A stretch of DNA of 64,000 bases from Bacillota bacterium. Its GTDB lineage: Bacteria; Bacillota; Limnochordia; DTU087; JAAYGB01. The position numbers were made by a program, and so were the translations under genes. The stretch lies in the NCBI GenBank assembly GCA_012727955.1, contig JAAYGB010000008.1, forward strand, positions 70,637 through 134,636. The letters run 5' to 3'. A model generated the notes under the pieces. The model worked only from the letters and a program-made list of their open reading frames with translations, was not told where the DNA came from and searched no databases. Below are positions 12,408-47,210 of this stretch, piece by piece (positions within the stretch are counted from its first letter, which is position 1; the number at the start of each line of letters is the position of its first letter).

Positions 12408-12430
12408 GATGTCAAACCTGTTAGCCTGGG

Positions 12431-22384: not shown

Positions 22385-23635
22385 ATGCCCACTACGTCGC
22401 GTCCCAGCAAGGCCGGGACCATTATTTTGGGCGCCGCTGCCCTCATCTTAACTATCTCTGTCATTGCTTACCCTGACGTAGCCTTCGACGCCTCATTGAA
22501 TGGGCTTCGCATCTGGTTTGACGTGGTGCTTCCTGCCCTTCTCCCCTTTTTTGCAATGTCAGAGATTATGATTGGCCTCGGAGTTGTTCACTTCATGGGA
22601 GTCTTGGTGGAACCCATCATGCGCCCGGTCTTTCGCATTCCGGGAGAAGGAGCCTTTGCGGTGGTTATGGGTCTGGCTTCGGGGTATCCCGTCGGTGCCA
22701 GAATTACAGCCCGCCTGTATCAGGAGGGAATGTGTAATTCCGTTGAGGGAGAGCGTCTCGTCAGTTTCGCCAATACCGCCGACCCGTTGTTCATGATTGG
22801 CGCGGTGGCAGTGGGCATGTTTGGACTCAGGAGCATTGGCTCAACCATAACCATCGCTCACTATATCAGTGTGGTCCTCGTAGGATTCTTGATGCGATGG
22901 CATAGACCTGCCGCAGCATCGACTCCCCCTTCTCGTCGAAAAACAAGGGGTGGCAATATGTTCTCCCGGGCTCTGTCGGCCATGCACCAAGCCAGAGCCA
23001 ACGATAATCGCTCCTTGGGTCAAGTTTTTGGAGATGCCGTTAAGGACACCTTTAACGCCCTGCTATTCGTCGGTGGCTGTATTATGATGTTTTCTGTCTT
23101 CACTGCCGTGCTGACGGCATCGGGAACCATTGACTGGCTGTCCACCCTACTCCAGAAGTCCCTGACTCTATTTGGTCTGAATGAATCCTTGGCTCCGGCG
23201 GTCCTCAAGGGGATCTTTGAAATCACCATCGGGTGTCAGGCTGCCAGTGAGGCCAGCGCCTCACTCCTGCACCGCGCAGTGATTGCCAGCGCCGTCATCG
23301 GCTGGAGCGGTTTTTCCGTCCATAGTCAAGTGGCAGCGATGGTACAGGGCACCGGAATCCGCCTGATGCCCTATATAATCGCTCGCGCCATGCATGGAGT
23401 ACTGGCTGCTATCGTTACGTACATAATAGCTATCCTCAATCCCAGCGTCTTGAGTTCCCAAGCTGCCCCAACTATCGGCTACTCTTTCATCCCAGCTGAG
23501 GGAATGACTTTTCTCACCGTGATCTCATCGGCCTCAGCGCTAGCGGGAAAAATCGCCTTGGTTATTGCAGGGCTAGTTTTCCTGGCCTGGATTCTGAGCA
23601 AAATCAAAATCGTCTCCTTCATCGTTAAGGACTAA
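22385..23635 (+). CDS. ylbJ: Sporulation integral membrane protein YlbJ (nucleoside-recognition Gate domain)
   Basis: Multi-TM protein, divergent from coaD-rsmD exactly as ylbJ is in B. subtilis. Start ATG 22385 with AAGGTGA RBS. The ORF-track start at 22295 adds 30 aa not seen in homologs. Confidence 0.7.
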   Translation: MPTTSRPSKAGTIILGAAALILTISVIAYPDVAFDASLNGLRIWFDVVLPALLPFFAMSEIMIGLGVVHFMGVLVEPIMRPVFRIPGEGAFAVVMGLASGYPVGARITARLYQEGMCNSVEGERLVSFANTADPLFMIGAVAVGMFGLRSIGSTITIAHYISVVLVGFLMRWHRPAAASTPPSRRKTRGGNMFSRALSAMHQARANDNRSLGQVFGDAVKDTFNALLFVGGCIMMFSVFTAVLTASGTIDWLSTLLQKSLTLFGLNESLAPAVLKGIFEITIGCQAASEASASLLHRAVIASAVIGWSGFSVHSQVAAMVQGTGIRLMPYIIARAMHGVLAAIVTYIIAILNPSVLSSQAAPTIGYSFIPAEGMTFLTVISSASALAGKIALVIAGLVFLAWILSKIKIVSFIVKD

Positions 23636-30937: not shown

Positions 30938-30975
30938 GGACAGTCCCGAAATTCCTCTGGGATTGTCCTTTTTGC
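30938..30975. terminator. Bidirectional rho-independent terminator between rpmB (+) and thiN (-)
   Basis: GGACAGTCCCgaaattcctctGGGATTGTCC followed by TTTTTGCTATTTG on the plus strand, with an A-run upstream that gives a T-run on the minus strand. Confidence 0.6.
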
Positions 30976-31622
30976 TATTTGTCCTGAAGATGAACCACCA
31001 AGAGCTTGCCTGCATGGATTTTCACCGTGGCTACACTTTCGATCATCCGGTTACTGTTTCCCAAGGAGGATCCAAAGGCTAGGGTTCCGTCCCGTAATTC
31101 ATAGTACAAACCGGTAGTGAATATGCCGGAAACCTCTGGGGTCAGAGGAATCAGCGACACCCAGTCCCCAACTTGACCCTGAATCTCTATCTGTGAATCA
31201 ATCACCTGCAGGCGCTGTCTGCCGGAAATAATCTGCACCTTGCGATGGGCTCCTTGGCTTAACATGAAGATATTACTGAGCATGTGATCCACTCTTCCGC
31301 CCAGCGCGCCCAAGATGACAATTTCCTCGACCTCAAGTCCCAGGGCGTAGTCTAGGGCCAGCTCCCCATCGGTCTGGTCCTTTTCCACGGGAAAGATGGA
31401 TAGCTCAACGCCCCTGTTCTGGATCTGTTGCTGGAGGATCGGGGATATGGAATCCATATCCCCGATCACTAAATCCGGTACCCATCCTAACTCACCGGCG
31501 TGTTCGGTGCCTCCATCGGCACAGATGAGAAAGTCGTCACCTTGAAGCTGAAAATCACCGATATCCAGCTCACCGTGGAGCAGGATGACTGCCCGTTTGA
31601 TCCCCGCCTTTACCTTCTTCAC
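30975..31622 (-). CDS. thiN: Thiamine pyrophosphokinase
   Basis: TPK catalytic and thiamin-binding domain pattern (GGTEHAGELGWVPDLVIGDMDS). Overlaps the thiT stop by 4 nt (ATGA). Confidence 0.85.
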   Translation of the reverse strand: MKKVKAGIKRAVILLHGELDIGDFQLQGDDFLICADGGTEHAGELGWVPDLVIGDMDSISPILQQQIQNRGVELSIFPVEKDQTDGELALDYALGLEVEEIVILGALGGRVDHMLSNIFMLSQGAHRKVQIISGRQRLQVIDSQIEIQGQVGDWVSLIPLTPEVSGIFTTGLYYELRDGTLAFGSSLGNSNRMIESVATVKIHAGKLLVVHLQDK

Positions 31623-32125
31623 TCACTTCGCTCCTTTGACCACAAACCTGTGCGCATGATCACCAGCATAATGATGATGGTCAGAACCAGCTGCGGAACC
31701 AGAAAGGTTGCATTGTAGCCAATGGAGTAGGCCCAGACGTTTTGGCCCTCAGGAGCATAGGAAGCCCAAAAGATTACTCCCGCCAAGGTATGAATCACTA
31801 ACCGACCGACACTAGCTACGACTATGCCAAGGATAGGTCGAGCTGAAAAAACCCCGGCTATTCCCAATACCGCAAAGGGCAAGGGATAATCCAACAATAA
31901 CTGAAGGGGATGAATTACATAGGCATCGCCCAACAGGTTGAGAAGCCCCAGAACAGCTCCGGCCCAAGCAGCAGGTTTCCACCCCGACCGAAAGGCCAAA
32001 TAGAAAAGGGGAACCATCTCCAAGGTAATGGAGCCCCCGTTGGGCCTCCGATACAAGCGAATCAGACTGAGGACAAAGGCAAGAGCTGCCGTTACCCCAA
32101 TCTCCGTCAACATCTTCGTCTCCAT
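31619..32125 (-). CDS. thiT: ECF transporter S component for thiamine (ThiT-like)
   Basis: About 168 aa, 5-6 TM integral membrane protein directly downstream of a TPP riboswitch. Start chosen at ATG 32125 (METKMLTEIG). The longer ORF-track N-terminus would overlap the riboswitch expression platform. Confidence 0.65.
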   Translation of the reverse strand: METKMLTEIGVTAALAFVLSLIRLYRRPNGGSITLEMVPLFYLAFRSGWKPAAWAGAVLGLLNLLGDAYVIHPLQLLLDYPLPFAVLGIAGVFSARPILGIVVASVGRLVIHTLAGVIFWASYAPEGQNVWAYSIGYNATFLVPQLVLTIIIMLVIMRTGLWSKERSE

Positions 32126-32247
32126 TTTTCTCTTCACTAAAATAATACCCCCTGTGTCGGCCGCCGGACAGGCTCCCATCCCATCGGTTGCTAACAACAC
32201 AAATGCCATCCCGTGATAGTGAAAGGATGGCATCGATAGTCAACTGT

Positions 32248-32444: not shown

Positions 32445-33287
32445 TTATATGCCATCGCCCAGGAAAACCGGTCCTAAGAGAACCAAGAGCAAGGAGGGAA
32501 AGACAAACAGAAGTAAAGGAAACATGATTTTGATAGGTGCCTTGCCAGCCTCCCCTTCGGCAGTAGCTGACTGCTTCATTCGGCTTTGGTGGGCCACAAC
32601 CCCCAAAATACTGCCTATGGAGGTGCCCAGCTTCTGTCCCTGAATTAGAGTAAGCACAAAGGAAGTCACATCGGGATGATCAAGTCTGTCGGCCAGGGAC
32701 CTTAGTGCCTGTTCCTGGGATGTACCCAAGCGGATTTCCTGCAGCACTCGACCCATCTCCCGATACAATGGTCCCCGATCGGCAAAGCCAGCAACAACAC
32801 CGAGGGCACCCTCAAAGGATAACCCCGCCTCGGTAGCAACCAGCATCAGATCAATTACCCGGGGCAAGGATTGCTGCACCTGTCCTTGCCGTTTTCTGTA
32901 CAGGCTAGACAAATACAGATCCGGGACAAAGAACCAGATACAGCCGAACACCGCGGCCAGGATGAAGTCACCGGCTATCACTCCTAGAATGATACCCAGA
33001 AGAGCAAAGGATACCTTTGCACCCACCACCGTTGAATAGGACAAATTGCTTAACCCAGCCTTGAGGATTTGCTGTTCCACATCGGATTTTCGGGGCCACG
33101 AGAACCACCGAGTATAGTGCCGCCCTACCGAACTGGCCCAGGCCAGCAAGTAGGCTCCTAAATTGGGCCTCTGTTCCCTGTTACCCTGGACAAACCTCCT
33201 CCACCACTTGAGACTCAAGGTCCAGGCCAGGGATTGCACCACAGCGACGACAACTAGAGCTCCAGTGCAGGCAATCAGATATTTCAT
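32445..33287 (-). CDS. tadC: Tad pilus assembly inner-membrane protein TadC (T2SSF domain)
   Basis: T2SSF-type polytopic membrane protein; last gene of the tad cluster. Confidence 0.75.
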   Translation of the reverse strand: MKYLIACTGALVVVAVVQSLAWTLSLKWWRRFVQGNREQRPNLGAYLLAWASSVGRHYTRWFSWPRKSDVEQQILKAGLSNLSYSTVVGAKVSFALLGIILGVIAGDFILAAVFGCIWFFVPDLYLSSLYRKRQGQVQQSLPRVIDLMLVATEAGLSFEGALGVVAGFADRGPLYREMGRVLQEIRLGTSQEQALRSLADRLDHPDVTSFVLTLIQGQKLGTSIGSILGVVAHQSRMKQSATAEGEAGKAPIKIMFPLLLFVFPSLLLVLLGPVFLGDGI

Positions 33288-33309
33288 ACCTATTCCACAG
33301 CCTTCCCGA

Positions 33310-34137
33310 CTAGTAGCTCAACTGCGAAATTCGATGAACCATCACCAATCCCACCACCTCCAGGACTGCCGCCAGCCCAAGGAGCACTCTTCCCAGGGGC
33401 CGGTGAAACAAGGGAGCTACATATTCCGGCATCATTTTAGACATCACCATTAGCAAAATCACTGGAAGCAAAGCCACTACTACCGCGGTTAGCCGACCTT
33501 GGGCCGTCAAGCTGTGTAACTTGTCTGCCAGGCGATGGCGCTCACGGATGGTGGCAGCAACGGTTTCCAAGATTGCCGGCAGATTACCACCGGTCCTGCG
33601 CTGAATAGCTACGGCCATCACCACGGTTTCAAAGTCCTCAGACTCCATCTCCACAGCTAACTGCTCCATTGCCTCAGTCACGTCCACTCCAAGATTCACC
33701 CTGCTCACCATGGTCTCGAAGGCCGTGCCCAAGGGTTGGGGCACTTCTCTAGCCACCATCGCCAAGGCTTGCACCAGGCTAAATCCGGCGGTCATCGCAT
33801 TGCCCACCAGACCTAATGCGTCGGGAAGCTGCTGCTCCATACGCTTTTTCCGTCGGGCTGCCATCCAGGCTTTCAGAAACCTCTGACCAACGAAGCCCCC
33901 AGCTCCCAAAAGCAAAGACAGGAAGGGGCTGGCCATGACCATCCCCATGACAGCCCCCACCAGCCCAAGGGTCACAGCCAAAACCCGGTCTCGACTTAGT
34001 TTAGCTGCCAGGGATAGGCCCCTGCGATCATGCCTAGTCCCGCTCCCTTGCCGATGCCCCTTCCTAGTTCTGGCTTCCATTAGCAATAGGCTCCAAAGCG
34101 CCAATCCACCGAGACTACAAAGCAACAACCGCATCAT
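33310..34137 (-). CDS. tadB: Tad pilus assembly inner-membrane protein TadB (T2SSF domain)
   Basis: T2SSF fold. Start ATGATG overlaps the upstream stop (ATGA coupling). Confidence 0.75.
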   Translation of the reverse strand: MMRLLLCSLGGLALWSLLLMEARTRKGHRQGSGTRHDRRGLSLAAKLSRDRVLAVTLGLVGAVMGMVMASPFLSLLLGAGGFVGQRFLKAWMAARRKKRMEQQLPDALGLVGNAMTAGFSLVQALAMVAREVPQPLGTAFETMVSRVNLGVDVTEAMEQLAVEMESEDFETVVMAVAIQRRTGGNLPAILETVAATIRERHRLADKLHSLTAQGRLTAVVVALLPVILLMVMSKMMPEYVAPLFHRPLGRVLLGLAAVLEVVGLVMVHRISQLSY

Positions 34138-36269
34138 CGGGCAGACACCGAATCCCGTGTCTCGGCAGGCCAAGGCAATCCCATGGCAAGAAAGTCAGCC
34201 GCCGTTTGGCTGCGGGAACTGGTTTGAACAAAGTCTCCTTGTACACCTAACTCCTCATCATAGCCGGTCTGCTGGAACCTAAACAGCTCCCGGAGCATCA
34301 CGTGCCCCTCCTCAATGCCCGTTACTTCAGCAATGGTCAAGACCTTCCGTGAACCATCTTTGAGTCGGCTTTGGAAGATTATCACATCGATGGCAGAGGC
34401 AATCTGTTCGCGAATTGCCCGCAGGGGAAGGTCCACCCCTGCTAACAAAATCATCGTCTCCAAGCGACTGACACAGTCCTGGGCACTGTTGGCATGGATC
34501 GTGGTCAAACTTCCATTGTGGCCGGTATTCATCGCTTGCAGCATGTCGATTACTTCATCGGAACGGCACTCGCCGACTATAATCCGATCCGGTCTCATTC
34601 TGAGGGCGTTCTTCACCAGTTCCCTGATAGTTACTTCACCCTTGCCCTCGACATTGGCAGGCTTGGCCTCAAGCCGACACACATGCTCCTGCATCAGCCT
34701 CAACTCTGCCGCGTCTTCGATGGTCACAATCCTCTCATCGGCGGGAATAAACCCCGACAAAACATTGAGCAGAGTTGTCTTTCCCGAGCCGGTACCTCCG
34801 GCAATAATGATGTTTTTCCGAGCCAACACACAACACTGAATAAACTGGGCCATGGCGTCGTTGAGAGAGCCCATCGCGATCAGATCGTCGACGGTAAAGG
34901 CCTGACGGGCAAACTTGCGAATGGTCAATATGGGGCCATTGAGAGCCAGTGGCGGAATAATGGCATTGACCCTGGAACCATCGGGAAGCCTTGCGTCAAC
35001 CATGGGACTACTTTCATCGATTCTTCGGCCCAGGGGCCCGACAATTCTTTCAATTACTTGCGACACTGCCATATCGCTGGCAAAGGTCAACGGCGTCTTC
35101 TGCAATTTCCCCTTAGTCTCGATATAGATCTGTTGACTTCCATTGACCATAATCTCGGTCACAGAGTCATCGGCTAGCAAGGCCTCTAGGGGTCCCAACC
35201 CCAGTATCTCATCGGTCAACTCAGCGATTAGGTTGTTCCTTGCCTTTTCAGATAGCGCCCCCTCCTGCCCTTGTAATTCCCTCAGGCAAAGACGGCGAAT
35301 CTCATCTCGCAGCTCCTGGCTGGCCGACAACTCCTCCCATGGCACAGACAGATCCCACTGAGAGGCTAACAACTCCTGGACTATCCTCTGGTGCAACTGA
35401 GACTTTAGTGCCGGAACCCCGGCAGCCGACGACAGCGGGGTTCCTTCCTCGTCACCACGCCTTCTCAAGTTTCTTCGTCGTCGTTTGCGTCTCCGGTATT
35501 TTTCCAGGAGGGAGACGGATTTTGCCGGTCGAGGCGAGACCGCAAGTTCTTGAGTTAGATAGTCAAGACTGCGCACAATGGCCGATTTTCCATAGGTTCG
35601 AGAGAAAAGGCATCGCTTCTCCAAAGCAGTGGCCAGCAGGTCTTCATCTTCATTGGCAACCTCAAGGGATTCCACCTCCAACACCCTTTTCACCTGAGCC
35701 GCCACCTCCGACGCGGTGGACTCGGGAACTCGATTGACCACGCAAGTGATGGGACCCACACCTCCGGCCGTCAATTCCTGCAGCTGTAGAGCTGCTGCCC
35801 GCAGTGACAGGGGGCTCGGGGTCGTAACCAGGGCCAATCGATCGGTCAAACTTAGGGCAGACATGATCGGCAAACTCAACTCGTGGCCGAGATCTAGGAC
35901 TATGTAGGGGTAAATTTGACTAAGCAAGTGGATCAGCTTTTCCACATCGGCGCAGGTTGTTTGCTGCCAGACAACCTCGTCTGCCGGGCCTGACAGATGA
36001 TGAATCTTCCCATCGGCAGCGGTTACCATATAATCGGCAATGGCTTGCGTTTGCCATAGACTTTGATCCTGCCAACACTCCGTTACCGAACGACCTACTT
36101 TGATTCCCAGAACTGCCTCCATGGTCTTACCGGGATCCCAGTTCAAGGACAAGATGCAAACTGCTTCATCGCTGTGATCGCACAAGAGTCCCGCGAAGCC
36201 TGCGGCCAGAGTGGTAGTGCCCACTCCACCCTTAGCCCCCAGCCAGCCGATAATCCTTCCCAAGGTCAA
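34134..36269 (-). CDS. Fusion of a TadZ/CpaE-like ParA-MinD-type domain (N-terminal) and the TadA/CpaF secretion ATPase (C-terminal)
   Basis: The N-terminal 270 aa carry a deviant Walker A, GAKGGVGTTTLA, that lacks the second lysine. A polybasic linker RRRKRRRRNLRRR follows. The C-terminal 400 aa are a VirB11/CpaF ATPase with GGTGSGKTTLLN Walker A and Asp/His boxes. Probable start TTG 36269 with GGAGGTG RBS. Confidence 0.8.
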   Translation of the reverse strand: MTLGRIIGWLGAKGGVGTTTLAAGFAGLLCDHSDEAVCILSLNWDPGKTMEAVLGIKVGRSVTECWQDQSLWQTQAIADYMVTAADGKIHHLSGPADEVVWQQTTCADVEKLIHLLSQIYPYIVLDLGHELSLPIMSALSLTDRLALVTTPSPLSLRAAALQLQELTAGGVGPITCVVNRVPESTASEVAAQVKRVLEVESLEVANEDEDLLATALEKRCLFSRTYGKSAIVRSLDYLTQELAVSPRPAKSVSLLEKYRRRKRRRRNLRRRGDEEGTPLSSAAGVPALKSQLHQRIVQELLASQWDLSVPWEELSASQELRDEIRRLCLRELQGQEGALSEKARNNLIAELTDEILGLGPLEALLADDSVTEIMVNGSQQIYIETKGKLQKTPLTFASDMAVSQVIERIVGPLGRRIDESSPMVDARLPDGSRVNAIIPPLALNGPILTIRKFARQAFTVDDLIAMGSLNDAMAQFIQCCVLARKNIIIAGGTGSGKTTLLNVLSGFIPADERIVTIEDAAELRLMQEHVCRLEAKPANVEGKGEVTIRELVKNALRMRPDRIIVGECRSDEVIDMLQAMNTGHNGSLTTIHANSAQDCVSRLETMILLAGVDLPLRAIREQIASAIDVIIFQSRLKDGSRKVLTIAEVTGIEEGHVMLRELFRFQQTGYDEELGVQGDFVQTSSRSQTAADFLAMGLPWPAETRDSVSAR

Positions 36270-36309
36270 CACTGTCACCTCCGGCAATTTGTAGCTCTGC
36301 CTAGCTTTC

Positions 36310-38676
36310 CTACGGACCAGTGATACTGGGAGTCAAGATGATAACCAAATCTGACTGACTCGATTGATACTGCTCAGAGCGAAATAGCTGTCCCAAGATG
36401 GGCAAACTCCCCAACAATGGTACTTTGCTGATCATTTTCCGCTGCTCTTCTCCCAACAATCCACCAATGACAAGGGACTGACCGCTATCCATAAACACCT
36501 GAGTCTGTGCCTTGCGGACTCTGACCGCTGGAATTTGCACTCCATCGATGACTACGGCATTGTTCCAGTCCAGGAGACTAACTTCTGGTTCAAGCTGGAC
36601 ACATATTTTGTCCCCAACCAGTTCTCCAGAAACACTGAGCTTGACTCCATAGTCCCGCCATTCAATGACAGTCTCTTCTTCCGCCTTAACAGGAAGAGGA
36701 ATTTCTCCTCCGGCGAGAAAACTTGCAGTTTCACCGGAGGTAAAGACCAAGGTAGGAGCCGCCAGGGTACGTACTTTACCCTCTGCTGCCAGAGAGGTGA
36801 GGCTGGCCGTCAGTTCTCTGTTACCTAAAGTTAGGGGAACACTAACCGCCAACTCTCCCTCGGCAACCTGTAGCGCCCAAGAAGATGGAGGGGCACTATC
36901 GGAGGTAGCAAACCAGTTGACTCCAAGCTCTCGCAGGCTGGTGTCCTCAATTTCCACCACCCTGACCTGGACCTGAATCTGAGGCTTCACCGCAGACACC
37001 TGAATGGCACTAACCACTTTGGGAACCAACTCTTCTGCTAAGGATAGGATCCTATCCCTTTCCGCCTGGGAGCACTGTCCCGACAATAACACCATGTCAT
37101 CGACATAGGCCGCCTCTACTCCTTGTGGAAGAACGCCATTTAGATACTCCTGAACCCTCTGGTCGATGCCATCGCTGACAACGGATAGGGCATCAAGCCA
37201 CTGGGGATGAAGGTTGGAGATCACCTTGGCGACGTGGTCGTAGGTGGCCCGGGAGACCTGCCCCATGGCCAGGACCTCGCCCCCCTCAAGGTACAAGACC
37301 TCAACGCCAGTTTCTGCCAATAGCTGCTCAAGAGGTAAGCCTGCTTTCAGGGCTTTATTTTGCACCCCAACGGCATTAATGACAGGGTAGTCTAGGACAT
37401 CGACCAGCTGCTGCAATCGCTCCCGCTGTCCCTCTCTGGAAACGGTACCCAGCAAGATGACGGCTGAGTCCAGGGGCTCCACAACTACTTGCTCATACCC
37501 CCAGGTCTGGATAATTCGATTCAGTGTCTTGACAATTGACCTTTGGTCTATCCTTGGCTCCTTGGGCGATTGCACCAACAGACCATTAATCACCTTCGGC
37601 GCAAAGGCAGCGGCGATCTTCTCCGCCACCTCTGCCCGTTCCGGGCAGCTAACCTGACCATACAGTAACAGGCCTTCATCCACTACCTCGAGCTTTACCT
37701 CCGGCATCGCCAGAATCCGGGACAGGCGGGACAAATCGATACCGCCTTCCTGGCGCTGGTGATCTAACTCCCGATTCTTTCCCAACTGCCAGATCCTAGC
37801 CGGGGCAACTTCAACACCGTCTACTACAGGACCATATTGCTCCGCGGCCTTGCGCAGGGCCATCCTTTCCGCTTCGCTATCTACAGCCCCCCGGAGAACT
37901 AGCAAGTTGCCCACCCGCTGAACCCAAGCCCGAGCAAGACCCAGCTCAACGGGAAGCCGCAGTGCCTCTTGCCAGCTTTGATCCTCTACCGCCACCATCA
38001 TGACGGGGGTCAATCCCAGGTGAGTGGCCAGCTCCTTGAGTGCAGGGATATCCTCGGCCACAGCTACCGTGCCGCGGATCAACAAGACATTCTCAGCCCG
38101 CTGGAACTCTAGCTGGGGAAACAAGGAGCTGGTCAGCCGGGCAAAGGCCCCTTCCGCCGCGGCATAACTGGATTCTGCCGTAGTTGCCTTGGTAACGGTT
38201 AAGTCCAGTGTATCGGGCCACAGGGTTTGTAAGGCTTTTTCCAGCATCGAGCGACTTGACTGATCGACTTCCCCGGAGACAATCAAGGTAGTGCCTACCC
38301 ATGTAAACTGACAATCTGAGCCAACTACTTGCATCAGTTCCTCCAGCGACGGGCGGGGCTTGGGTAAGACATTGACCCGGGAACTTATCCGATCATCCCC
38401 CGTCCAGACAACCAATGTCGTTGACCCAAAGCCCTTGCCATTGAGAAGGAACTCATCCCGTCCAGACACCACCACATCGGCTACAGTCTCATCGCCGACA
38501 GCCACGGTGGTCAACCCCGGCACAGGAAAGACCTGGGACTCACCGACGATGAGCTCAATTTCTCCTGGCAGACTACTGGCTTCCGCCCAGCTGCCGGCAA
38601 TCGCTATCAAGAGACTGAGACAACTAATCAGTCTCCACAACGAAGACCTGAGAACCCCGGATGACGGTAATATCAT
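36310..38676 (-). CDS. cpaC: CpaC/RcpA-family secretin carrying seven tandem BON-like domains
   Basis: Signal peptide, then a pilus-formation N-terminal domain (IELIVGESQVFPVPGLTTVAVGDETVADVVVS...GKGFGSTTLVVW). Seven repeats of about 60-75 aa follow, with pattern VxVVxEPLDSAVILLGTVSxEGQRERLQQLVxVLDYPVINAVGV. The C-terminal secretin domain ends ...KVPLLGSLPILGQLFRS. GGGGAGGGAG RBS. Confidence 0.8.
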   Translation of the reverse strand: MILPSSGVLRSSLWRLISCLSLLIAIAGSWAEASSLPGEIELIVGESQVFPVPGLTTVAVGDETVADVVVSGRDEFLLNGKGFGSTTLVVWTGDDRISSRVNVLPKPRPSLEELMQVVGSDCQFTWVGTTLIVSGEVDQSSRSMLEKALQTLWPDTLDLTVTKATTAESSYAAAEGAFARLTSSLFPQLEFQRAENVLLIRGTVAVAEDIPALKELATHLGLTPVMMVAVEDQSWQEALRLPVELGLARAWVQRVGNLLVLRGAVDSEAERMALRKAAEQYGPVVDGVEVAPARIWQLGKNRELDHQRQEGGIDLSRLSRILAMPEVKLEVVDEGLLLYGQVSCPERAEVAEKIAAAFAPKVINGLLVQSPKEPRIDQRSIVKTLNRIIQTWGYEQVVVEPLDSAVILLGTVSREGQRERLQQLVDVLDYPVINAVGVQNKALKAGLPLEQLLAETGVEVLYLEGGEVLAMGQVSRATYDHVAKVISNLHPQWLDALSVVSDGIDQRVQEYLNGVLPQGVEAAYVDDMVLLSGQCSQAERDRILSLAEELVPKVVSAIQVSAVKPQIQVQVRVVEIEDTSLRELGVNWFATSDSAPPSSWALQVAEGELAVSVPLTLGNRELTASLTSLAAEGKVRTLAAPTLVFTSGETASFLAGGEIPLPVKAEEETVIEWRDYGVKLSVSGELVGDKICVQLEPEVSLLDWNNAVVIDGVQIPAVRVRKAQTQVFMDSGQSLVIGGLLGEEQRKMISKVPLLGSLPILGQLFRSEQYQSSQSDLVIILTPSITGP

Positions 38677-39472
38677 GTCTCCCTCCCCTTCTTGCCTCTT
38701 CTTTCTGCGATGGCACTGCTGGGGTCCCGTCTAACTGGAGCAGTGACTCCAGGGTTATCGCCGAAGTCACCCTCCCGGCTAGGGAATCAGCGGCTGATCC
38801 CAAGGAAACTACCCGCAGCTGACCAAAGGCGTCGGCCAGTGCCAAGCGATGGACGGTAACATCATCCACCGACAGAACCAGCTGAGTGGTCTCCGAAAGG
38901 CCAGGATAAGACAAAGGCGCCCCCTCACCGTAGTCACTGCCTAACACATCGACTACCTCGACTTGACTGGCAATCACTACACTCTGCTCCGAAGCATCGA
39001 TCCGGGCGGGGAAGATCCCGATGATATCCACCAACTGTCCCCGCTGGAGATGACGGGCCTGGCGGGTCGGAACAGAAACGACAAAATGCTTACCTCCTGG
39101 CAAACCGGAGGAATCCCCCTCCCGCTGGTCATCCTCATGGGCAGCAAATTCTAGATGGTCTCTGGTGAGCACCGAACCCGCCGACAAGTCGGTGGCGGTA
39201 ATCATCCCTGCTACCACCAATCCATCGATCCAGCCCAGGGGCAATTGCGCCACCGGCCGAGTCTCCAAGAGGATGTGATCCCCGGTGATTGTAGTCCCCG
39301 CGGCCACATCCTCGACCAACACTGCAACCCGAGCTACCACCCCTTCTCCCGTCGACTCCAGCTGAGCCAGGTAAAAGTAGAGCATAACCGCAAAGACCAG
39401 AGCCAACACTCCCGCTACCCAGGGTTTTCGTAGGTAGGACGGAATTCCGCGGATCAGAAGGGAAGAGGCCAT
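38624..39472 (-). CDS. cpaB: Flp pilus assembly protein CpaB/RcpC (SAF domain)
   Basis: N-terminal TM followed by a SAF-like domain (VLVEDVAAGTTITGDHI). Directly upstream of the secretin, which it overlaps by 53 nt. Confidence 0.7.
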   Translation of the reverse strand: MASSLLIRGIPSYLRKPWVAGVLALVFAVMLYFYLAQLESTGEGVVARVAVLVEDVAAGTTITGDHILLETRPVAQLPLGWIDGLVVAGMITATDLSAGSVLTRDHLEFAAHEDDQREGDSSGLPGGKHFVVSVPTRQARHLQRGQLVDIIGIFPARIDASEQSVVIASQVEVVDVLGSDYGEGAPLSYPGLSETTQLVLSVDDVTVHRLALADAFGQLRVVSLGSAADSLAGRVTSAITLESLLQLDGTPAVPSQKEEARRGGRHDITVIRGSQVFVVETD

Positions 39473-40587
39473 GGCAACTCATCTCTGATGTCAATCTCAG
39501 GCCCGGCAAAGGTATAGCCCATAATCACCGTTCCTTCTGGACCGCTGATTGCCCCAAGAAAACACACGTGGCGCTCCCGGAAGTAGACGCCAAAATCGAA
39601 GTCGGTAATTTCCCCCAGCGATTTAAGTACCTCCCGGTCCCCCCCGAATATCTGGTTAAAGCCATGCCCCATGTCCTTCAGCCGTGTTGCCGCATCCTTG
39701 AGGAGTTCAGGATTCAGGAAGGGAAGCCCCACCCAACCCTCTTGAGCCAATCGTTGCCGATACCAATGAGTGACAGCCGCAAAACTATCTCCAGACTTCA
39801 TCATGACTAAGGTTGCTTCGTTCAGAAACCCACTCCGGTTGGGAGGTCCCTCGACGCGGTCTAAAACGATTTTTAGCACGTCAGAGCCCCGTGGATAGAT
39901 AGGCAGCACCAACCTCTGCAGGTACTCTTGCGGTGGAGTCAGATGGGTACCATTTCCGGCAATGACCGTCTTTACCAAGGAGACAATCTTATCATCGTCA
40001 TCGACATCGTCGTAGTCGGGGTAGCTATCCGGCGGGAGTATGGCCCGCAGTTTCGGGTCGTGATCCGGATTGGCATACACCTGCCATTCAATGGTGTATC
40101 CAGGCCCCTTAGCCCGCCGGGAGTCCACCACTATGTAACGCATTACTTCCTTCGCCTCTTCCAGAGACAGCGGCTCGGTCAGATAGGGATCCTTTTTTGC
40201 TTGCTCGTAAATGTATTCCGCATTCTCCTCCACCCAATCATAGGCTTCTACCCGCAGTGCTCCACGGGAAAAGTGGTTTCGCCAATGGCGGGCCGCCCTT
40301 TCTGCCGGTATGGTCATGGGCATCCACAACTCATATCGCCAGACATCATCCTCGAAAAACCAGCCACCCACCGAGAAAAGCATCCCATCGGGGTGAGGTA
40401 AGTCCACGCCTAAGGGTGCTGCCATGAGTGCCTCGAAGGTTAAGCACAAAGCTATCCCCAGCGGGAAAATAAGTCTACCAAGGTACCGAGCAATGGAACA
40501 CCATAAGCGTCGGATTTCATTTCTTCCCGGAGAGCTACCTTTTCTCCCAGTAAATGCTGAAACATGGGCATAACGGGAAAGTCGCAA
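39454..40587 (-). CDS. Hypothetical protein embedded in the tad operon (single hydrophobic segment, acidic DYDDVDDDD stretch)
   Basis: Long ORF with codon usage matching its neighbours and no recognisable motif. Start uncertain: the ORF-track GTG 40626 and my preferred TTG 40587 (GGTGGTG RBS) both overlap the 3' end of the upstream tadE-like gene, by 175 or 136 nt, in another frame. Confidence 0.4.
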   Translation of the reverse strand: MRLSRYAHVSAFTGRKGSSPGRNEIRRLWCSIARYLGRLIFPLGIALCLTFEALMAAPLGVDLPHPDGMLFSVGGWFFEDDVWRYELWMPMTIPAERAARHWRNHFSRGALRVEAYDWVEENAEYIYEQAKKDPYLTEPLSLEEAKEVMRYIVVDSRRAKGPGYTIEWQVYANPDHDPKLRAILPPDSYPDYDDVDDDDKIVSLVKTVIAGNGTHLTPPQEYLQRLVLPIYPRGSDVLKIVLDRVEGPPNRSGFLNEATLVMMKSGDSFAAVTHWYRQRLAQEGWVGLPFLNPELLKDAATRLKDMGHGFNQIFGGDREVLKSLGEITDFDFGVYFRERHVCFLGAISGPEGTVIMGYTFAGPEIDIRDELPWPLPF

Positions 40588-40913
40588 GATATCACCACCC
40601 GATCCATTGAAAGAGTTCGTCTGCACACCACTTCGTAGTGCAGTCCCGGCAACGCAGAATTACTGTTGAGGAAGTTCTCGACCTGGCTAACGGCCTCACC
40701 CGCGGTCCGGCTAGCCACCAACCGAATACCTTGTCTAGCTGCCATCGCCATCAGAATCTTGGTGTGGACAATGGCACCAAACTGAATCATCGCAAAGATG
40801 ACAAACAGCAGCAGCGGCAACACTATGGCCATTTCAACCAAGGCCTGTCCATTCTCGCTCCCTGCCCTCAGACTCAACAAGAGCCCTCTCCCCTTTGTTG
40901 CTGAAATTGTCAT
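40452..40913 (-). CDS. TadE/TadF-like pseudopilin
   Basis: TadE-like N-terminus GQALVEMAIVLPLLLFVIFAMIQFG. Confidence 0.7.
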   Translation of the reverse strand: MTISATKGRGLLLSLRAGSENGQALVEMAIVLPLLLFVIFAMIQFGAIVHTKILMAMAARQGIRLVASRTAGEAVSQVENFLNSNSALPGLHYEVVCRRTLSMDRVVISCDFPVMPMFQHLLGEKVALREEMKSDAYGVPLLGTLVDLFSRWG

Positions 40914-40921
40914 GCCCAGGG

Positions 40922-41668
40922 CTAATCTTTTTCTTTGTCCTTCTCCTTGTTCTCCTGATTGAGCTTCTCGCCGAAATAATTCCTCACCCAGTCCACCCCC
41001 TCCCCAATGCCACCGGCATGGAATTTGACCAGGCTCGCCTTGAAGTCAGGCCAAACCAAGCCGCTACCGTGGACCGCTGACTCCGAGATTGCCACCATCA
41101 CCCCACCCCTATCGGACTTGTCCCTCAACTTACTAAGCAGGGGTAAAGGTTGTCTAACCGCAGCCCCACCCATAATTATGAACCGCTTGCCGTAGGGTAA
41201 GTTATGAGTTCGTCGCTGGGCGTCCACCATGTACTCCTTCCAAAACATCCACCAACGCTTTTTCGGCTCTCTCACCTCAAGATCCGGCATCGCCACCCCT
41301 CCGAGGAAATTCAACGGCACTACCACCGCGGCTCCATTGCGAAGCCCTGTTTCCGTCGCGACGAGAATGGCCAGGACAGGAGCGCTGGCGACTACCATGA
41401 TCTGCGCTTGTTTCGCCATCTCCCTGTGGGCAGGTTCGGTGGCCGAAACACGGGCCCAATTAAGCTGCACTACTAAGTTCAAACAAGAAGCTAGACAGGC
41501 TCCGCCGGCTTGGGCACTGGCGTCCACGGCATTGGCTAGCCGAATCTTAGCGACCATGGTCTCCCCGAGATAGTACACCATCACCGTGGCCAGCATCAGT
41601 ACCGCCACTGCCACCGCGGCCATCACCATCACTTGCCCATCTTTAGCTGTAATGATCTTGCTAATCAT
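40922..41668 (-). CDS. TadG-like pilus assembly protein
   Basis: N-terminal TM plus Tad_N-like segment (VMVMAAVAVAVLMLATVMVYYLGE...LANAVDASAQAGGA). Lys/Glu-rich C-terminal tail. ATGA overlap with the upstream gene. Confidence 0.5.
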   Translation of the reverse strand: MISKIITAKDGQVMVMAAVAVAVLMLATVMVYYLGETMVAKIRLANAVDASAQAGGACLASCLNLVVQLNWARVSATEPAHREMAKQAQIMVVASAPVLAILVATETGLRNGAAVVVPLNFLGGVAMPDLEVREPKKRWWMFWKEYMVDAQRRTHNLPYGKRFIIMGGAAVRQPLPLLSKLRDKSDRGGVMVAISESAVHGSGLVWPDFKASLVKFHAGGIGEGVDWVRNYFGEKLNQENKEKDKEKD

Positions 41669-42189
41669 AGGAAAAACCGTCCCAAATGCCTTAACCCGGG
41701 GATGGACTCGAAGAACCGACCGAAGATGTTGCTAGAATACATTCTGGCGTTTTCCTGGGGCAGCGAATAGGTGACCTGACTCTGTCCCGTAGCATCCTCT
41801 ACCATGGACAGCTGCAGACCAAACCAACTCATTTGGCCTGAGAAAACTCGCTTGACGGTGCTGAGTAACCAGGGCTGCGTACGAGTGACGGTGACCACAA
41901 TGTCCTTGCCCTGCTTCTTTACCGATCCCGTCAAGATCAGACCGCGAACTCCCGAGCCCCAACCGTTGATCACTCTCGCTACAGGAAGTAGATAACTTGA
42001 GGATGGATTGTGTAACACTGCTCGGCGGGCCTCCTCGTAGGCACCGTACTTGACCAGCATCCCATCCAGCAGATGCAAACTCATGGCAAATCCTCCCCAC
42101 AGGACTAACATCACTACCGGCAAGGCAATCACGAACTCCAGCACTCCCACTCCCTCTTCCGAGCGCCAACCGTACACAGCAATTGCCAC
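41665..42189 (-). CDS. TadE-like pseudopilin
   Basis: EEGVGVLEFVIALPVVMLVLWGGF TadE motif. GTG start, or alternative GTG at 42177. Confidence 0.7.
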   Translation of the reverse strand: MAIAVYGWRSEEGVGVLEFVIALPVVMLVLWGGFAMSLHLLDGMLVKYGAYEEARRAVLHNPSSSYLLPVARVINGWGSGVRGLILTGSVKKQGKDIVVTVTRTQPWLLSTVKRVFSGQMSWFGLQLSMVEDATGQSQVTYSLPQENARMYSSNIFGRFFESIPGLRHLGRFFL

Positions 42190-42194
42190 CTCCG

Positions 42195-42803
42195 TTAGCG
42201 TGATACCCCCTGAAGACTAAGGATGATAATCCCACACAAGCTGATCCAGAATCCCAGGGGAACACTAATTCCCAACACCTGGCCTTCCATACCCAAGGCG
42301 CAGGATGCCATCCGTCGCAATAACTGTTTCACCTGGCCCCGTTGCCGGGCAATTATCAGCACATGGATGCCGGAGACTATGGCACCCCATACCGCAATCC
42401 GCAGAGCAACTTCTAGTGGCACCAACACACCCAAGCAAGCCAGGAGCTTGACATCGCCTCCTCCGATGCCTCCCCAGCGATACACCACACAGAAGGGCAA
42501 GGCCAGGACAAAGCCTCGAACCAAGGCCCCAAAGCCTGCCAGCCAGCCACCATCGGCAAGGTTCAGCACCAGCCCCAGTATGAGCACCGGAGCTAGGACC
42601 CCATTGTAGATCCGCCGATACCGCCAGTCAGTATACGCGACGATGACCAAAAACCCCAGGGTCAACAGCCATAGTCCATCGAAACCACCTGCCTCACTCC
42701 CGAACTCTCCAGGGATGGAAAAAGGGGCAAAGCCAATGGCCCTGCCCCTCCAAAAGGGTGCCGAATACCGTTGCTCCATGCCCCAGGTTAACACACCAGC
42801 CAT
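42195..42803 (-). CDS. cpaA: Flp prepilin peptidase CpaA/TadV (A24 aspartic peptidase)
   Basis: DWRYRRIYN and GGGDVKL motifs carry the two catalytic Asp. The N-terminal extension in the ORF is questionable. Confidence 0.8.
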   Translation of the reverse strand: MAGVLTWGMEQRYSAPFWRGRAIGFAPFSIPGEFGSEAGGFDGLWLLTLGFLVIVAYTDWRYRRIYNGVLAPVLILGLVLNLADGGWLAGFGALVRGFVLALPFCVVYRWGGIGGGDVKLLACLGVLVPLEVALRIAVWGAIVSGIHVLIIARQRGQVKQLLRRMASCALGMEGQVLGISVPLGFWISLCGIIILSLQGVSR

Positions 42804-42880
42804 GCCCTTCGAGAGTTATGTGATTTTTTGATTTTTGTTAGATAGTCAACAACCCAACTAAGTATCAACTTACGCCATCG

Positions 42881-43048
42881 TCAACCGCCGATGGTTTCAG
42901 CTAACTGAAGGAACTTCCCCGATATACTGCTTCCCAGAACGCGGACGGCCCCCAGACCCACTACAGCAATCAGTGCCGTCAGCAGTCCGTACTCGGCCAT
43001 GCTTTGTCCGCTTTCGTCCTGCCACAGTTCTCGGAGAAATGCTCGCAT
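42881..43048 (-). CDS. flp: Flp/Fap family pilin (55 aa; below ORF-track cutoff)
   Basis: Manual translation gives MRAFLRELWQDESGQSMAEYGLLTALIAVVGLGAVRVLGSSISGKFLQLAETIGG. The G/QSMAEY Flp processing motif sits at mature positions E5 and Y6. GGGGGT RBS. Confidence 0.75.
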   Translation of the reverse strand: MRAFLRELWQDESGQSMAEYGLLTALIAVVGLGAVRVLGSSISGKFLQLAETIGG

Positions 43049-43108
43049 CATCCTACCCCCTTTCCCCGTGAACTAGCACCCTTATTGGCAAAGTAAATCT
43101 GTATTTAA

Positions 43109-43300
43109 CTAGAACACATTAACGTAGTAAATCAGCTCTAGAATCATGCGGTCACACATCTTCAGTAGTACCCCCTTCATCTTCTCCGACCACAAGACAA
43201 AGGGAATTGCCACCACAGCCAGAAGCAAGGCGTATTCAGCAACACTTTGCCCCCCTTGGTCCAGCAACAGCGAGGCTGCAGAGACCTTTATTCTTGCCAT
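43109..43300 (-). CDS. flp: Flp/Fap family pilin (64 aa)
   Basis: MARIKVSAASLLLDQGGQSVAEYALLLAVVAIPFVLWSEKMKGVLLKMCDRMILELIYYVNVF, with G/QSVAEY motif. This is the C-terminal part of ORF-track 43109..43483, restarted at ATG 43300. Confidence 0.75.
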   Translation of the reverse strand: MARIKVSAASLLLDQGGQSVAEYALLLAVVAIPFVLWSEKMKGVLLKMCDRMILELIYYVNVF

Positions 43301-43445: not shown

Positions 43446-44147
43446 TTACTGGTTCCCTTGACAGGCGAAACGCAGATCAGCAATGGTGCGATCCCGATGG
43501 GCGCTGCGGAAAATCGAGGAACCTGCTACCAATATGTTGGCTCCCGCTTCAACCACCAATGGAGCTGACACCAGGTCAATTCCCCCATCGACCTGAATGT
43601 CCACCTGCAGCTTCCGCTCCATAATTATTCTCCGCAATGCCCTAATCTTGGAAACCATCCCAGGGATAAACTTCTGGCCCCCAAAGCCAGGATTGACGGT
43701 CATGATCAGCACCTGATCAAGGTCCTCCAGGATATACTCCAGGACGTCCAAGGGTGTTGCCGGGTTTAGGGCAACGCCAACCCTAACGCCCAGAGCCTTG
43801 ACCAATCCCACAGAGCGGTGCAGATGAATGCAGGCTTCCGCTGACAGAGTCAAGGCAGTGGCACCGGCCTTAACAAAATCCTCAACATAACGATCGGGAT
43901 CGGCAATCATCAGGTGTACATCCAGGGGCTGATCCGTAAACTTGCCAATGGCCTCTACAACTCCTGGACCGAAGGTGATGTTGGGAACAAAGTGTCCATC
44001 CATCACATCAATATGTAACATGTCCGCTGCAGACACCGATGCGATCTCTTCTCCGAGCCGCATAAAATCCGCAGCCAGCAAAGAGGGGGCGATTTTGACA
44101 TCGGTCCCCCTCGAAGCATTATCTGAGTTAGTATCTGTTTTCTTCAT
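43446..44147 (-). CDS. rpe: Ribulose-phosphate 3-epimerase
   Basis: IAPSLLAADF...HIDVMDGHFVPNITFG...DGG motifs. Confidence 0.9.
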   Translation of the reverse strand: MKKTDTNSDNASRGTDVKIAPSLLAADFMRLGEEIASVSAADMLHIDVMDGHFVPNITFGPGVVEAIGKFTDQPLDVHLMIADPDRYVEDFVKAGATALTLSAEACIHLHRSVGLVKALGVRVGVALNPATPLDVLEYILEDLDQVLIMTVNPGFGGQKFIPGMVSKIRALRRIIMERKLQVDIQVDGGIDLVSAPLVVEAGANILVAGSSIFRSAHRDRTIADLRFACQGNQ

Positions 44148-45029: not shown

Positions 45030-47210
45030 TTACGGAAATGCCTGCTCCGATACCAGTCGATTGCCGATGTAAACCTGGATTCTCGCGTCGCCACCTTGGC
45101 CACTGACCTGGCGAGTGACCACACTGCCACCCTTATGCACACCACGATAGGCCTCCCTGGCTCCCAAGTCATCGATCACCAGGATGACAACCTCGGTGTC
45201 TGGTCCCGGCGGGATTACAACCTGTACTTCAGCCTGTTGGAAAGAAGGTTCACCGCCAGTGGTTTCCCTTGCCTCGAGCTCCTCCTCAGCCTCAGTTTCC
45301 GGCTGCTGGGGCTCTGGCTCACCGATCTGATCCTGGGGAGGCAGCTGTTCATCCTCCCTACCACTGGGTTCTATGGGCAGTTCAGGCTCTTGTGGTGCTT
45401 CTTCAACGGCCCCTTGCCCCGGCTCCTCATCCCGGTCTTCGTCATCGGGTTCTTCGATCCCGTGGCCCTGATCCTCGTGGAGCTGGGTACCGGGACGACC
45501 TAAGCTATAGACAAAATCCACGGTATCTCCCGGGGCAACGGTGGTTCCCGGCGCCGGGTTTTGAGAAATTATGTGCCACCGGGGAATCGATATTGAGGTA
45601 TCGCCCCAAGCGTTACCCAGGACCAGTCCCAATTCAGCCAGACGCTCCTTGCTGGCCTCCAAGGTCATGTTCCGAAAATCCGGAAGGGTTAAATTACCTG
45701 TAGTAACTCTCTCACTACTGACACTGATGTTTACCGCCGAGCCCTCCTCGAGATAGGAGCCGGCCTGGGGTTCTTGGGCAATCACCTGATCCAAGGGCGC
45801 CTCAACCCCAACCACAGGAGTTTCAATGCCCACCACTAGCCCCGCCTGCGTAATGCGCAAGCGAGCATCCCGCACCGTTAATCCCACTAGCGAAGGCACT
45901 TCCACCATTCTAGGTCCTTTGCTCACAGTGACAAACACCGTGCGATACATCTTAATCCGTCGATTAGGACTGGGATCCTGGTTGAGAACCTGTCCCGCGG
46001 GAGCCTCGGTACTGTAAACCTCTCGTTCCACCGCAAGCTTCAGTCCATGCCTTTCCAACAACTCCCGGGCCTCGTTCTGCGTCCTTCCGACGACGTTGGG
46101 CACAACTACCTCTTCGGGAAAAATCAACTGGGGAATCTTGGTGGCGCCCCAGATCAACAGCCCAATAAACAATAGGGACAGCAGGACAATCGAACGCACC
46201 CGCCCCTTGCGACGCACTGGTCGTGTCTCCTTTGGTGGTTCCTCGTCCCTGATCCGCGTCTGGGCCTTGGTTTCATCGCCCAACCTATGGATCATCGTGC
46301 GACCAGTGGTCTCGGCAACGGACTCAATCAAGGTAGTGGCCTCCACTTCCGGTGACGCCATTCCCGGGTGTCTGCCAGTAGTGGTCAAGGATTCTGCCAC
46401 CCTTTGCAGATCTTGCAGCATCTCGGAAGCAGTCTGATAGCGCTCCTTTAGATCCTTGGCCAACGCCTTGACAACGATTCTGTCTAGTTCCCGCGGAATA
46501 CTGGGATTCAGCTGCCGAGGAGGTTTGATCGGCTCCTGTACGTGTTGCAGGGCGATGGCTACCGGCGTATCCCCAGTAAAGGGCAAGGTTCCCGTGAGCA
46601 TTTCATATAACAACACACCCAGGGAGTATAGGTCCGACTGCTTTGTCGCCATCCCGCCTCTGGCCTGCTCCGGGGAAAAGTATTGGGCAGTTCCCATCAC
46701 AAAACCAGTCTGAGTCAATTCAGAATAACTTGCTGCCAAAGCGATACCAAAATCCGTTACCTTGACCTGATTATCTTCGGTGATAATTATGTTATGGGGC
46801 TTAATGTCCCGGTGGACCAAATGATGACGATGTGCGTGCTCCAGGGCCATGGCCACTTGCTGGGCAATATGGACAGCAGTGCCCAAGGGAATCGATTGCC
46901 GGCGAATGATGTCCTTGAGGTTACGGCCTTCCACATACTCCATGACAATAAAATACACGTCATCTTCCTGACCCACATCGTAGATGTTGACTACGTTGGC
47001 ATGGGACAGACTGGCAGCGGCTTGGGCTTCCCGGCGAAAGCGCTCGACGAATTCCCGATCACCGGCGTACTGCTCCCGCAGCACCTTAACCGCGACAAGA
47101 CGACCCAGGAGCATATCCTTCGCTTTGTAAACCAAGGCCATGCCGCCTGCGCCAACTTTCTCTAGTATCTTGTATCGATTCGAAAGGACCTTCCCCAGCA
47201 AATTCGTCAC
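45030..47210 (-). CDS. prkC: Ser/Thr protein kinase with PASTA repeats
   Basis: Hanks kinase motifs (GAGGMALVYKA, HRDIKPHNI, DFGIA), a TM segment, three PASTA repeats, and an acidic low-complexity C-terminus. Confidence 0.9.
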   Translation of the reverse strand: MTNLLGKVLSNRYKILEKVGAGGMALVYKAKDMLLGRLVAVKVLREQYAGDREFVERFRREAQAAASLSHANVVNIYDVGQEDDVYFIVMEYVEGRNLKDIIRRQSIPLGTAVHIAQQVAMALEHAHRHHLVHRDIKPHNIIITEDNQVKVTDFGIALAASYSELTQTGFVMGTAQYFSPEQARGGMATKQSDLYSLGVLLYEMLTGTLPFTGDTPVAIALQHVQEPIKPPRQLNPSIPRELDRIVVKALAKDLKERYQTASEMLQDLQRVAESLTTTGRHPGMASPEVEATTLIESVAETTGRTMIHRLGDETKAQTRIRDEEPPKETRPVRRKGRVRSIVLLSLLFIGLLIWGATKIPQLIFPEEVVVPNVVGRTQNEARELLERHGLKLAVEREVYSTEAPAGQVLNQDPSPNRRIKMYRTVFVTVSKGPRMVEVPSLVGLTVRDARLRITQAGLVVGIETPVVGVEAPLDQVIAQEPQAGSYLEEGSAVNISVSSERVTTGNLTLPDFRNMTLEASKERLAELGLVLGNAWGDTSISIPRWHIISQNPAPGTTVAPGDTVDFVYSLGRPGTQLHEDQGHGIEEPDDEDRDEEPGQGAVEEAPQEPELPIEPSGREDEQLPPQDQIGEPEPQQPETEAEEELEARETTGGEPSFQQAEVQVVIPPGPDTEVVILVIDDLGAREAYRGVHKGGSVVTRQVSGQGGDARIQVYIGNRLVSEQAFP

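Follow-up and report, generated by a model that had tools for sequence, protein, structure and literature searches.

A Tad pilus secretin with an array of seven BON domains in a Limnochordia-like diderm Firmicute

INTRODUCTION

Knowledge of secretins and Tad pili in Proteobacteria is good, but there has been little exploration of how such machines fit the envelopes of Terrabacteria, the diderm Firmicutes included. The RcpA secretin of Pseudomonas aeruginosa consists only of an N-domain, a 20-residue linker, and the secretin domain, and other homologs add an N3 domain (PMC10499894); CpaC of Caulobacter crescentus is composed of a VirB9-like N-domain, N3, and the secretin domain (PMC13170226). 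A combination of BON and secretin domains is already listed as a recurrent BON architecture (cluster 4 in Table 1 of Bryant et al. 2020, PMC7806268), and the PilQ of Thermus has six stacked N-domain rings in a 350 Å complex that, according to its authors, spans a wide periplasm (PMC5745081). The present study concerns a secretin gene of the CpaC/RcpA type in a 64,000-nucleotide stretch (the window) of contig JAAYGB010000008.1 from a Bacillota bacterium of the Limnochordia, one of three lineages of diderm Firmicutes, with OmpM-type outer membrane tethers (bioRxiv 10.1101/2021.05.31.446380). The product is the outer membrane secretin of a complete Tad (Flp, type IVc) pilus machine of a Limnochordia-like diderm Firmicute, and it is almost certainly a Tad secretin with seven BON domains, an arrangement first remarked on in a reading of the letters made without database searches (the original prediction).

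DOMAIN ORGANIZATION AND IDENTITY OF THE SECRETIN

The open reading frame at 36310-38676 on the minus strand is one gene, encoding 788 residues and a stop, with exactly the boundaries originally proposed. The order of domains is signal peptide, beta-sandwich N-domain, seven BON domains (alpha-beta-beta-alpha-beta), N3, and secretin barrel. In HMMER searches against Pfam, a check recommended in the original prediction, matches above threshold were obtained with PF13629 (T2SS-T3SS_pil_N; residues 38-99, 51.7 bits against a cut-off of 23), with PF04972 (BON; 39.8 bits against a cut-off of 27, in three stretches only, the best being residues 517-560), and with PF00263 (Secretin; residues 629-785, 129.5 bits against a cut-off of 27.5). 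The last of these places the protein in the secretin superfamily, and the PF13629 domain, which aligns with residues 42-98 of RcpA and stands where a classical N0 domain would be, identifies it as a Tad/Flp secretin. The nearest solved structures are those of RcpA (8odn, 3.5e-51) and of the Tad-type secretin of Acidithiobacillus caldus (8jvb, 4.3e-45), with GspD and PilQ at 1e-24 or weaker.

Membership of the PilQ, GspD, and SctC families was considered and rejected, the NCBIfam models for PilQ, GspD, SctC, HofQ, and MshL all scoring below their cut-offs. The protein likewise falls outside the elongated PilQ of the Thermus/Deinococcus type, as the PilQ model gives 102 bits against a cut-off of 284, the order of secondary structure in the repeats is that of the BON fold, and the gene lies in a Tad rather than a type IVa pilus locus. 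A possible lipoprotein signal (L-I-S-C at residues 16-19) was also rejected, because the cysteine, which is not conserved in orthologs, precedes the hydrophobic core and an AxA site; we infer that the signal peptide is cleaved after WAEA.

The protein shares with RcpA (8odn) and CpaC the PF13629 beta-sandwich N-domain, the secretin core, and a Tad locus in which the gene adjoins cpaB/rcpC, but neither of these has a BON array, whereas the window secretin has seven copies. The secretins with a single BON domain, including 8jvb and a homolog from a Negativicute of the Acidaminococcaceae (L005), resemble it in having a BON module directly after the pilus N-domain, and 8jvb aligns with it through the N-domain and repeat 1; however, they have one copy and about 420-560 residues, as compared with seven copies and 788 residues.

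EVIDENCE FOR SEVEN BON REPEATS

The central claim of the original prediction was that seven repeats, resembling BON domains, separate the pilus N-domain from the secretin core. For testing, seven units were delimited (residues 106-164, 165-231, 232-293, 294-370, 371-440, 441-501, and 502-562), a hidden Markov model (HMM) was constructed from each set of six, and the omitted unit and 500 shuffled versions of it were scored. All seven repeats outscored every one of their 500 shuffles, with 10.8-34.4 bits as against shuffle maxima of 5.6-11.7; repeats 1 and 2, at about 11 bits, were the weakest. The three peptides offered as examples in the original prediction are present in repeats 5, 3, and 7. 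Comparison of the protein with itself by BLASTP gave no off-diagonal matches and Tandem Repeats Finder detected no repeats in the DNA of the gene. Since the repeats are just 11-30% identical to each other (mean 20%), the periodicity exists at the level of the protein only, invisible to BLASTP and in the DNA; both programs are blind to repeats that have diverged to this extent, and profile-based tests were therefore used.

In the AlphaFold2 model of the full-length protein, another proposed check, residues 110-559 form seven consecutive units of helix-strand-strand-helix-strand, and the N3/secretin part comes after them. It should be noted that this model, generated from a 4-sequence alignment with a mean predicted local distance difference test score (pLDDT) of 59 and a predicted template modeling score of 0.28, was used for secondary structure only; in blocks of 10 residues the repeat region mostly has a pLDDT of 60-80, with lower values at the linkers between repeats. 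In an alignment of 29 repeat units, taken from the secretin and five homologs, a single glycine position is invariant, and this, with the alpha-beta-beta-alpha-beta fold, characterizes the units as BON domains. A profile of the 29 units matches OsmY at 7.6e-8 and OmpATb, BonA, and DolP more weakly. In a comparison of the repeat units with known domains, the figures were 9.2 for DolP, 9.0 for CdsD/YscD, 8.4 for OsmY, 7.8 for BonA, and 7.6 for the Tad-type secretin 8jvb, and 5.2-6.0 for PrgK, EscJ, PrgH, SpoIIIAH/AG, and FliF; the units are taken to be BON domains because of this comparison, in which DolP is highest. Repeat 1 aligns with the sole module that follows the N-domain in 8jvb.

The wedge fold of the repeat units (alpha-beta-beta-alpha-beta) is also that of the ring-building motif of PrgH/YscD, PrgK/EscJ, FliF, and SpoIIIAG/AH. 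The periplasmic domains of YscD, CdsD, and PrgH in the inner membrane ring of type III secretion differ from the present array in comprising three modules on an inner membrane protein of the injectisome and in lying outside any secretin. DolP, OsmY, and BonA differ in having two BON domains in a lipoprotein or soluble periplasmic protein that functions in phospholipid binding or chaperoning and forms no channel.

CONSERVATION AND AGE OF THE ARRAY

Searches with word-indexed methods yielded 13 matches, 3 of them full length, and 20 when a family alignment was used; the multi-BON family described below came to light through an exhaustive HMMER search. Three full-length orthologs, with 45-54% identity, have the same start region, the same order of repeats, and an uninterrupted frame. 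Each repeat is most similar (31-68%) to the repeat in the same position in the orthologs P0001, P0002, and P0003; the array therefore existed before these species diverged and did not arise by recent amplification. The N-domain is the most conserved region (67% identity to orthologs), followed by N3 and the secretin domain (61%), repeats 1-4 (46-59%), and repeats 5-7 (25-37%). Ortholog P0003, of 743 residues, lacks precisely repeat 5 (residues 371-440 of the 788-residue protein), a clean deletion of a whole module; P0003 and members of its cluster with identical length are found on contigs of up to 317 kb.

These observations bear on the possibility that the array is not a meaningful feature at all, but a mis-called or fused open reading frame or a decaying repeat region with no function. 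The start of the gene overlaps cpaB by 53 nucleotides and Pfam by itself recognizes only three BON stretches, as might be expected of an artifact, but the start region, repeat order, and open frame are preserved in the orthologs at the identities given, the overlap and the gene order recur in a Limnochordia metagenome-assembled genome (MAG), each repeat is predicted to fold, and dozens of related clusters retain such arrays. The conservation data thus effectively refute this explanation, which is left with a negligible probability.

COPY NUMBER OF BON DOMAINS AMONG HOMOLOGS

The exhaustive HMMER search, with a profile of four long orthologs, gave 2,543 clusters at E ≤ 1e-30. BON domains were counted with an iterated BON HMM in the best 150 of these matches together with the earlier homologs and the window secretin; this set is ranked by score and hence enriched for long forms, which account for only a small part of the 2,543 clusters. 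Within it, counts of 0-11 and of 16 were found, the most common being a single copy (64 rows). Exactly seven copies occur in twelve rows, comprising the window protein and eleven cluster representatives, which makes seven the most frequent number for a long form; the representatives with four or more copies number at least 40. In proteins with at least four copies the median distance from the start of one unit to the start of the next is 68 residues, with 81% of distances between 55 and 85, so that the multi-BON proteins are tight head-to-tail arrays. The original prediction held that typical CpaC/RcpA proteins carry at most one such module and proposed a comparison of copy numbers. One copy is indeed the commonest and seven is not the norm for the family, but the rarity of long arrays was overstated, given the range of counts and the eleven other representatives with seven.

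The largest array, with 16 BON units at a regular spacing of 65-76 residues, is in a protein of 1437 residues (P0037, at 3079-7392 of locus L007); the CpaB encoded beside it has 368 residues, as compared with 282 in the window. Other examples are MGI6037024.1 and MBI2914855.1 (11 copies each), NLY52488.1 (8 copies), and the MDI9450830.1 cluster (7 copies). All forms with six or more copies for which an organism is named are from the Limnochordia or from MAGs labeled "Bacillota/Firmicutes bacterium", and one form with 4 copies is from Armatimonadota; the Negativicute homolog L005 has one. The 11- and 16-copy proteins lie in the same Tad gene order. A faint OmpA match in one 11-copy relative (P0017) overlaps a BON unit and was not taken to represent a peptidoglycan-binding domain.

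The multi-BON relatives carry the automatic annotations "BON domain-containing protein" or "CpaC". No description of multi-BON secretins, and no experimental study of these proteins, was found in the searchable literature. With dozens of uncharacterized relatives having similar arrays of up to 16 copies, the array is therefore a trait of a lineage rather than a one-off. The window secretin falls within a class of multi-BON Tad secretins, typical of Limnochordia-like bacteria, whose members have been sequenced but not studied. It belongs with the CpaC-like proteins of Limnochordia/Bacillota MAGs in architecture and Tad gene order, the differences being in copy number (5-16) and in the fusion of TadZ to CpaF in the clade of the window protein, whereas locus L008 keeps two genes.

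POSSIBLE ROLE OF THE BON ARRAY

The best-supported mechanism that we infer is that the BON array acts as a periplasmic spacer, a stalk of stacked rings, to which a probability of roughly 0.55 is assigned. In such a mechanism, 12-14 secretin protomers would assemble into the outer membrane pore, and the ring of N-domains, with residues 34-105 as the presumed docking site, would dock onto the C-terminal beta-hairpin of the CpaB/RcpC ring anchored in the inner membrane, as in Pseudomonas; studies of RcpC and RcpA are the basis for proposing that this hairpin of CpaB completes the sheet of the secretin N-domain (PMC12307814). The array lies between the docking point for CpaB and the outer membrane gate, and would thereby fix the distance between the two. 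With short linkers between its seven BON modules, the array would extend as a long stalk through the periplasm; stacked rings encircling the path of the pilus are its most likely form, because a ring-building fold and short linkers are combined with a position equivalent to that of the N1-N2 rings of other secretins. If each tier contributes about 3 nm, a rough estimate from the structure of Thermus PilQ, the stalk would be about 20 nm long for seven tiers. Copy number would serve to adjust length, whole modules of about 68 residues being gained or lost to fit the envelope of the host lineage.

The closest analogue for such a mode of working is the PilQ of Thermus thermophilus, which functions in type IVa pili and DNA uptake and is also a secretin lengthened by extra periplasmic domains; the solution would be the same as its six N-domain rings but built from a different domain. 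PilQ differs in belonging to the type IVa system and in having rings formed from beta-alpha-beta-beta-alpha N-domains, as opposed to alpha-beta-beta-alpha-beta BON domains, and is an analogue of the window secretin, not a fellow member of its class. A broader and more tentative proposal, which we place somewhat below an even chance, is that in Limnochordia and some other Terrabacteria it is the Tad secretin, not the CpaB/RcpC ring, that would build the conduit across the periplasm, from 7 (in some cases as many as 16) BON rings stacked into a tube, and that modules gained or lost in evolution would gauge its length to a diderm envelope of unusual width or wall thickness; the PilQ solution would then have been invented twice, independently, and the stalk would be the first of any secretin in which BON domains form the rings.

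Several considerations weigh against a stalk of stacked rings. The full-length model is a monomer with the low mean pLDDT given above, and the formation of rings by these BON domains is presumptive; to our knowledge, the best-characterized BON proteins, DolP and OsmY, which are the nearest BON relatives of the repeats, are not ring formers. Dimensions for the Limnochordia envelope were not found in the searchable literature. The Acidaminococcaceae homolog, from a Negativicute that also has an envelope of the OmpM type, has a single BON domain, so a long stalk is not a necessary consequence of this envelope type alone. Seemingly related Bacillota range from 5 to 16 copies, which the width of the periplasm by itself can hardly explain, and organism names are available for a minority of the long forms only.

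The same architecture might instead represent a flexible leash, in which the BON domains, as beads on a string, tether the N-domain and CpaB to the barrel with neither rings nor a conduit and so tolerate an outer membrane that is variable or loosely held. The 22-residue linker between repeats 3 and 4 is unconserved and modeled with low confidence, repeats 5-7 are the least conserved, and repeat 5 is dispensable in P0003, all of which would suit a tether; the N-domain and linker of purified P. aeruginosa RcpA were invisible through flexibility (PMC10499894), and the outer membrane of diderm Firmicutes can detach dramatically when its tethers are lost. However, a rod is favored over a floppy chain by the shortness of most linkers between repeats (4-9 residues) and by the tight period throughout the family; the fold is that of known ring builders, and the positional identity that repeats keep across orthologs suggests position-specific contacts. 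A leash is consequently considered unlikely relative to a stacked stalk.

Slightly less probable again is a role in binding or anchoring, in which the ligand of the BON domains would be peptidoglycan, a secondary wall polymer, or phospholipid, the last being bound by BON2 of DolP, or the domains would serve as a built-in chaperone for assembly; in either case they would replace the TadD pilotin and a CpaD-type peptidoglycan anchor, neither of which was recognized among the genes of this Tad locus. Each of the seven repeats is acidic, with a net charge of -1 to -6 and a pI of 4.1-5.2, a poor fit with anionic lipids or wall polymers, and 7-16 tandem copies at a regular period resemble an element that sets length rather than a binding site; these are mild arguments, to which may be added that the sole BON domain of ordinary CpaC homologs occupies the same position in the stalk. 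With respect to the original prediction, which had envisaged a very long periplasmic stalk, the observation of seven repeats is confirmed, well above chance, and the interpretation is partly supported.

Tad secretins that vary by single BON units (0-16) offer a natural series for examining how the machine is matched to envelope width, and the same series could show whether BON domains form rings. Secretins of this kind are further support for the idea that the outer membrane of Limnochordia is functional and bears appendages that depend on secretins. In practical terms the finding is of modest weight: many MAG annotations already contain this architecture without comment on it, and Thermus PilQ had established the principle that a wider periplasm is spanned with additional rings.

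THE TAD LOCUS AND ITS SURROUNDINGS

The secretin gene is part of a complete Tad locus at 32445-43051, in which Flp pilin, A24 peptidase, CpaB/RcpC, CpaF/TadA, TadB, and TadC are all present. The order in the window is TadC, TadB, a TadZ-CpaF fusion, the secretin, CpaB/RcpC, a 390-residue open reading frame, three TadE/TadG-like genes, the A24 peptidase, the Flp pilin, and a second Flp-like open reading frame (Table 1).

Table 1. Positions of the parts of the secretin gene and of the Tad genes in the window
Feature	Position	Strand	Evidence
Secretin gene, CpaC/RcpA type (whole)	36310-38676	-	Open reading frame list; Pfam T2SS-T3SS_pil_N, BON, and Secretin; nearest solved relatives RcpA 8odn and Tad-type secretin 8jvb
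Signal peptide, residues 1-33	38578-38676	-	Core LSLLIAIAG, then WAEA before likely cleavage site; translation; residues 1-36 low pLDDT
Pilus N-domain (beta-sandwich), residues 34-105	38362-38577	-	PF13629; all-beta in AlphaFold2 model
BON repeat 1, residues 106-164	38185-38361	-	10.8 bits, shuffle maximum 7.0; H110-117 E121-126 E129-136 H138-151 E155-161
BON repeat 2, residues 165-231	37984-38184	-	11.0 bits, shuffle maximum 10.3; H-E-E-H-E at 166-229
BON repeat 3, residues 232-291	37804-37983	-	Leave-one-out 24.3 bits; H-E-E-H-E at 233-285
Variable linker/hinge, repeats 3-4, residues 292-313 (22 residues)	37738-37803	-	pLDDT <50 for 292-311; 9% identity to orthologs; length varies in alignment
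BON repeat 4, residues 314-370	37567-37737	-	Leave-one-out 34.4 bits; H-E-E-H-E at 314-367
BON repeat 5, residues 371-440	37357-37566	-	Missing in ortholog P0003
BON repeat 6, residues 441-501	37174-37356	-	Leave-one-out 16.4 bits; H-E-E-H-E at 446-498
BON repeat 7, residues 502-562	36991-37173	-	Leave-one-out 29.1 bits; H-E-E-H-E at 502-559; best Pfam BON stretch 517-560
N3-like domain and secretin core, residues 563-788	36313-36990	-	PF00263, residues 629-785; aligns to RcpA 196-372; NCBIfam GspD/SctC models align from residue 563
TadC-like platform protein	32445-33287	-	PF00482 T2SSF
TadB-like platform protein	33310-34173	-	PF00482 T2SSF
TadZ-like ParA/MinD domain fused to CpaF/TadA ATPase, 717 residues	34134-36287	-	AAA_31/CbiA residues 11-206, T2SSE residues 363-639
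CpaB/RcpC-type alignment protein, 282 residues, N-terminal transmembrane helix	38624-39472	-	Pfam SAF and RcpC; translation
Open reading frame of 390 residues between TadE-like gene and cpaB	39454-40626	-	No Pfam or NCBIfam match
Minor-pilin-like genes (three)	40452-42189	-	PF07811, PF13400
TadE-like	40452-40913	-	
Tad/TadG-like	40922-41668	-	
TadE-like	41665-42189	-	
Prepilin peptidase (A24)	42195-42803	-	PF01478, 57 bits
Flp pilin, 56 residues	42881-43051	-	PF04964 Flp_Fap, 36.6 bits
Small Flp-like open reading frame upstream of Flp pilin	43109-43300	-	G-x4-EY motif (GGQSVAEYALLLAVV); no Pfam Flp_Fap match

The locus, on the minus strand, is inserted between rpe (43446-44147) and the genes for a thiamine transporter and thiamine pyrophosphokinase, thiT/thiN (30975-32233), within a block typical of Firmicutes (priA ... 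prkC-rsgA-rpe ... thiN-yloV-recG ... smc-ftsY-ffh). A contig from a Limnochordia MAG (L001) has the same arrangement at the identical insertion point, with a secretin that is 55% identical. The TadZ-CpaF fusion is also present there (710 residues), whereas L008 has one gene for CpaF and another for TadZ, which there carries a receiver domain; the partial locus L007 also has a gene for TadZ alone. The 3' end of cpaB overlaps the start of the secretin gene at 38624-38676, and a similar overlap of 50 nucleotides is found in L001 (genes at 9187-10050 and 10001-12424), suggesting that the two genes are translationally coupled. The C terminus of CpaB has a strand-turn-strand-like sequence, ITVIRGSQVFVVETD.

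The listed GTG start of the 390-residue open reading frame runs about 175 nucleotides into the upstream gene, and the true start is therefore probably further downstream. The gene in the same position in L001 (314 residues) is likewise without a Pfam match, and the open reading frame may be a lineage-specific Tad component. The small Flp-like open reading frame may encode a divergent second pilin.

In the window as a whole (1-64000), nearly all large open reading frames are on the minus strand and the GC skew is negative in every 2-kb bin. The only large plus-strand open reading frame that is not inside a longer one on the minus strand encodes YlbJ, a sporulation membrane protein (22295-23635), which suggests that the host is a spore-former. 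A PrkC-like Ser/Thr kinase of 726 residues (45030-47210, minus strand), whose L001 counterpart has PASTA domains, contains a long, very acidic Glu/Pro-rich stretch (about residues 560-650) ahead of the C-terminal end.

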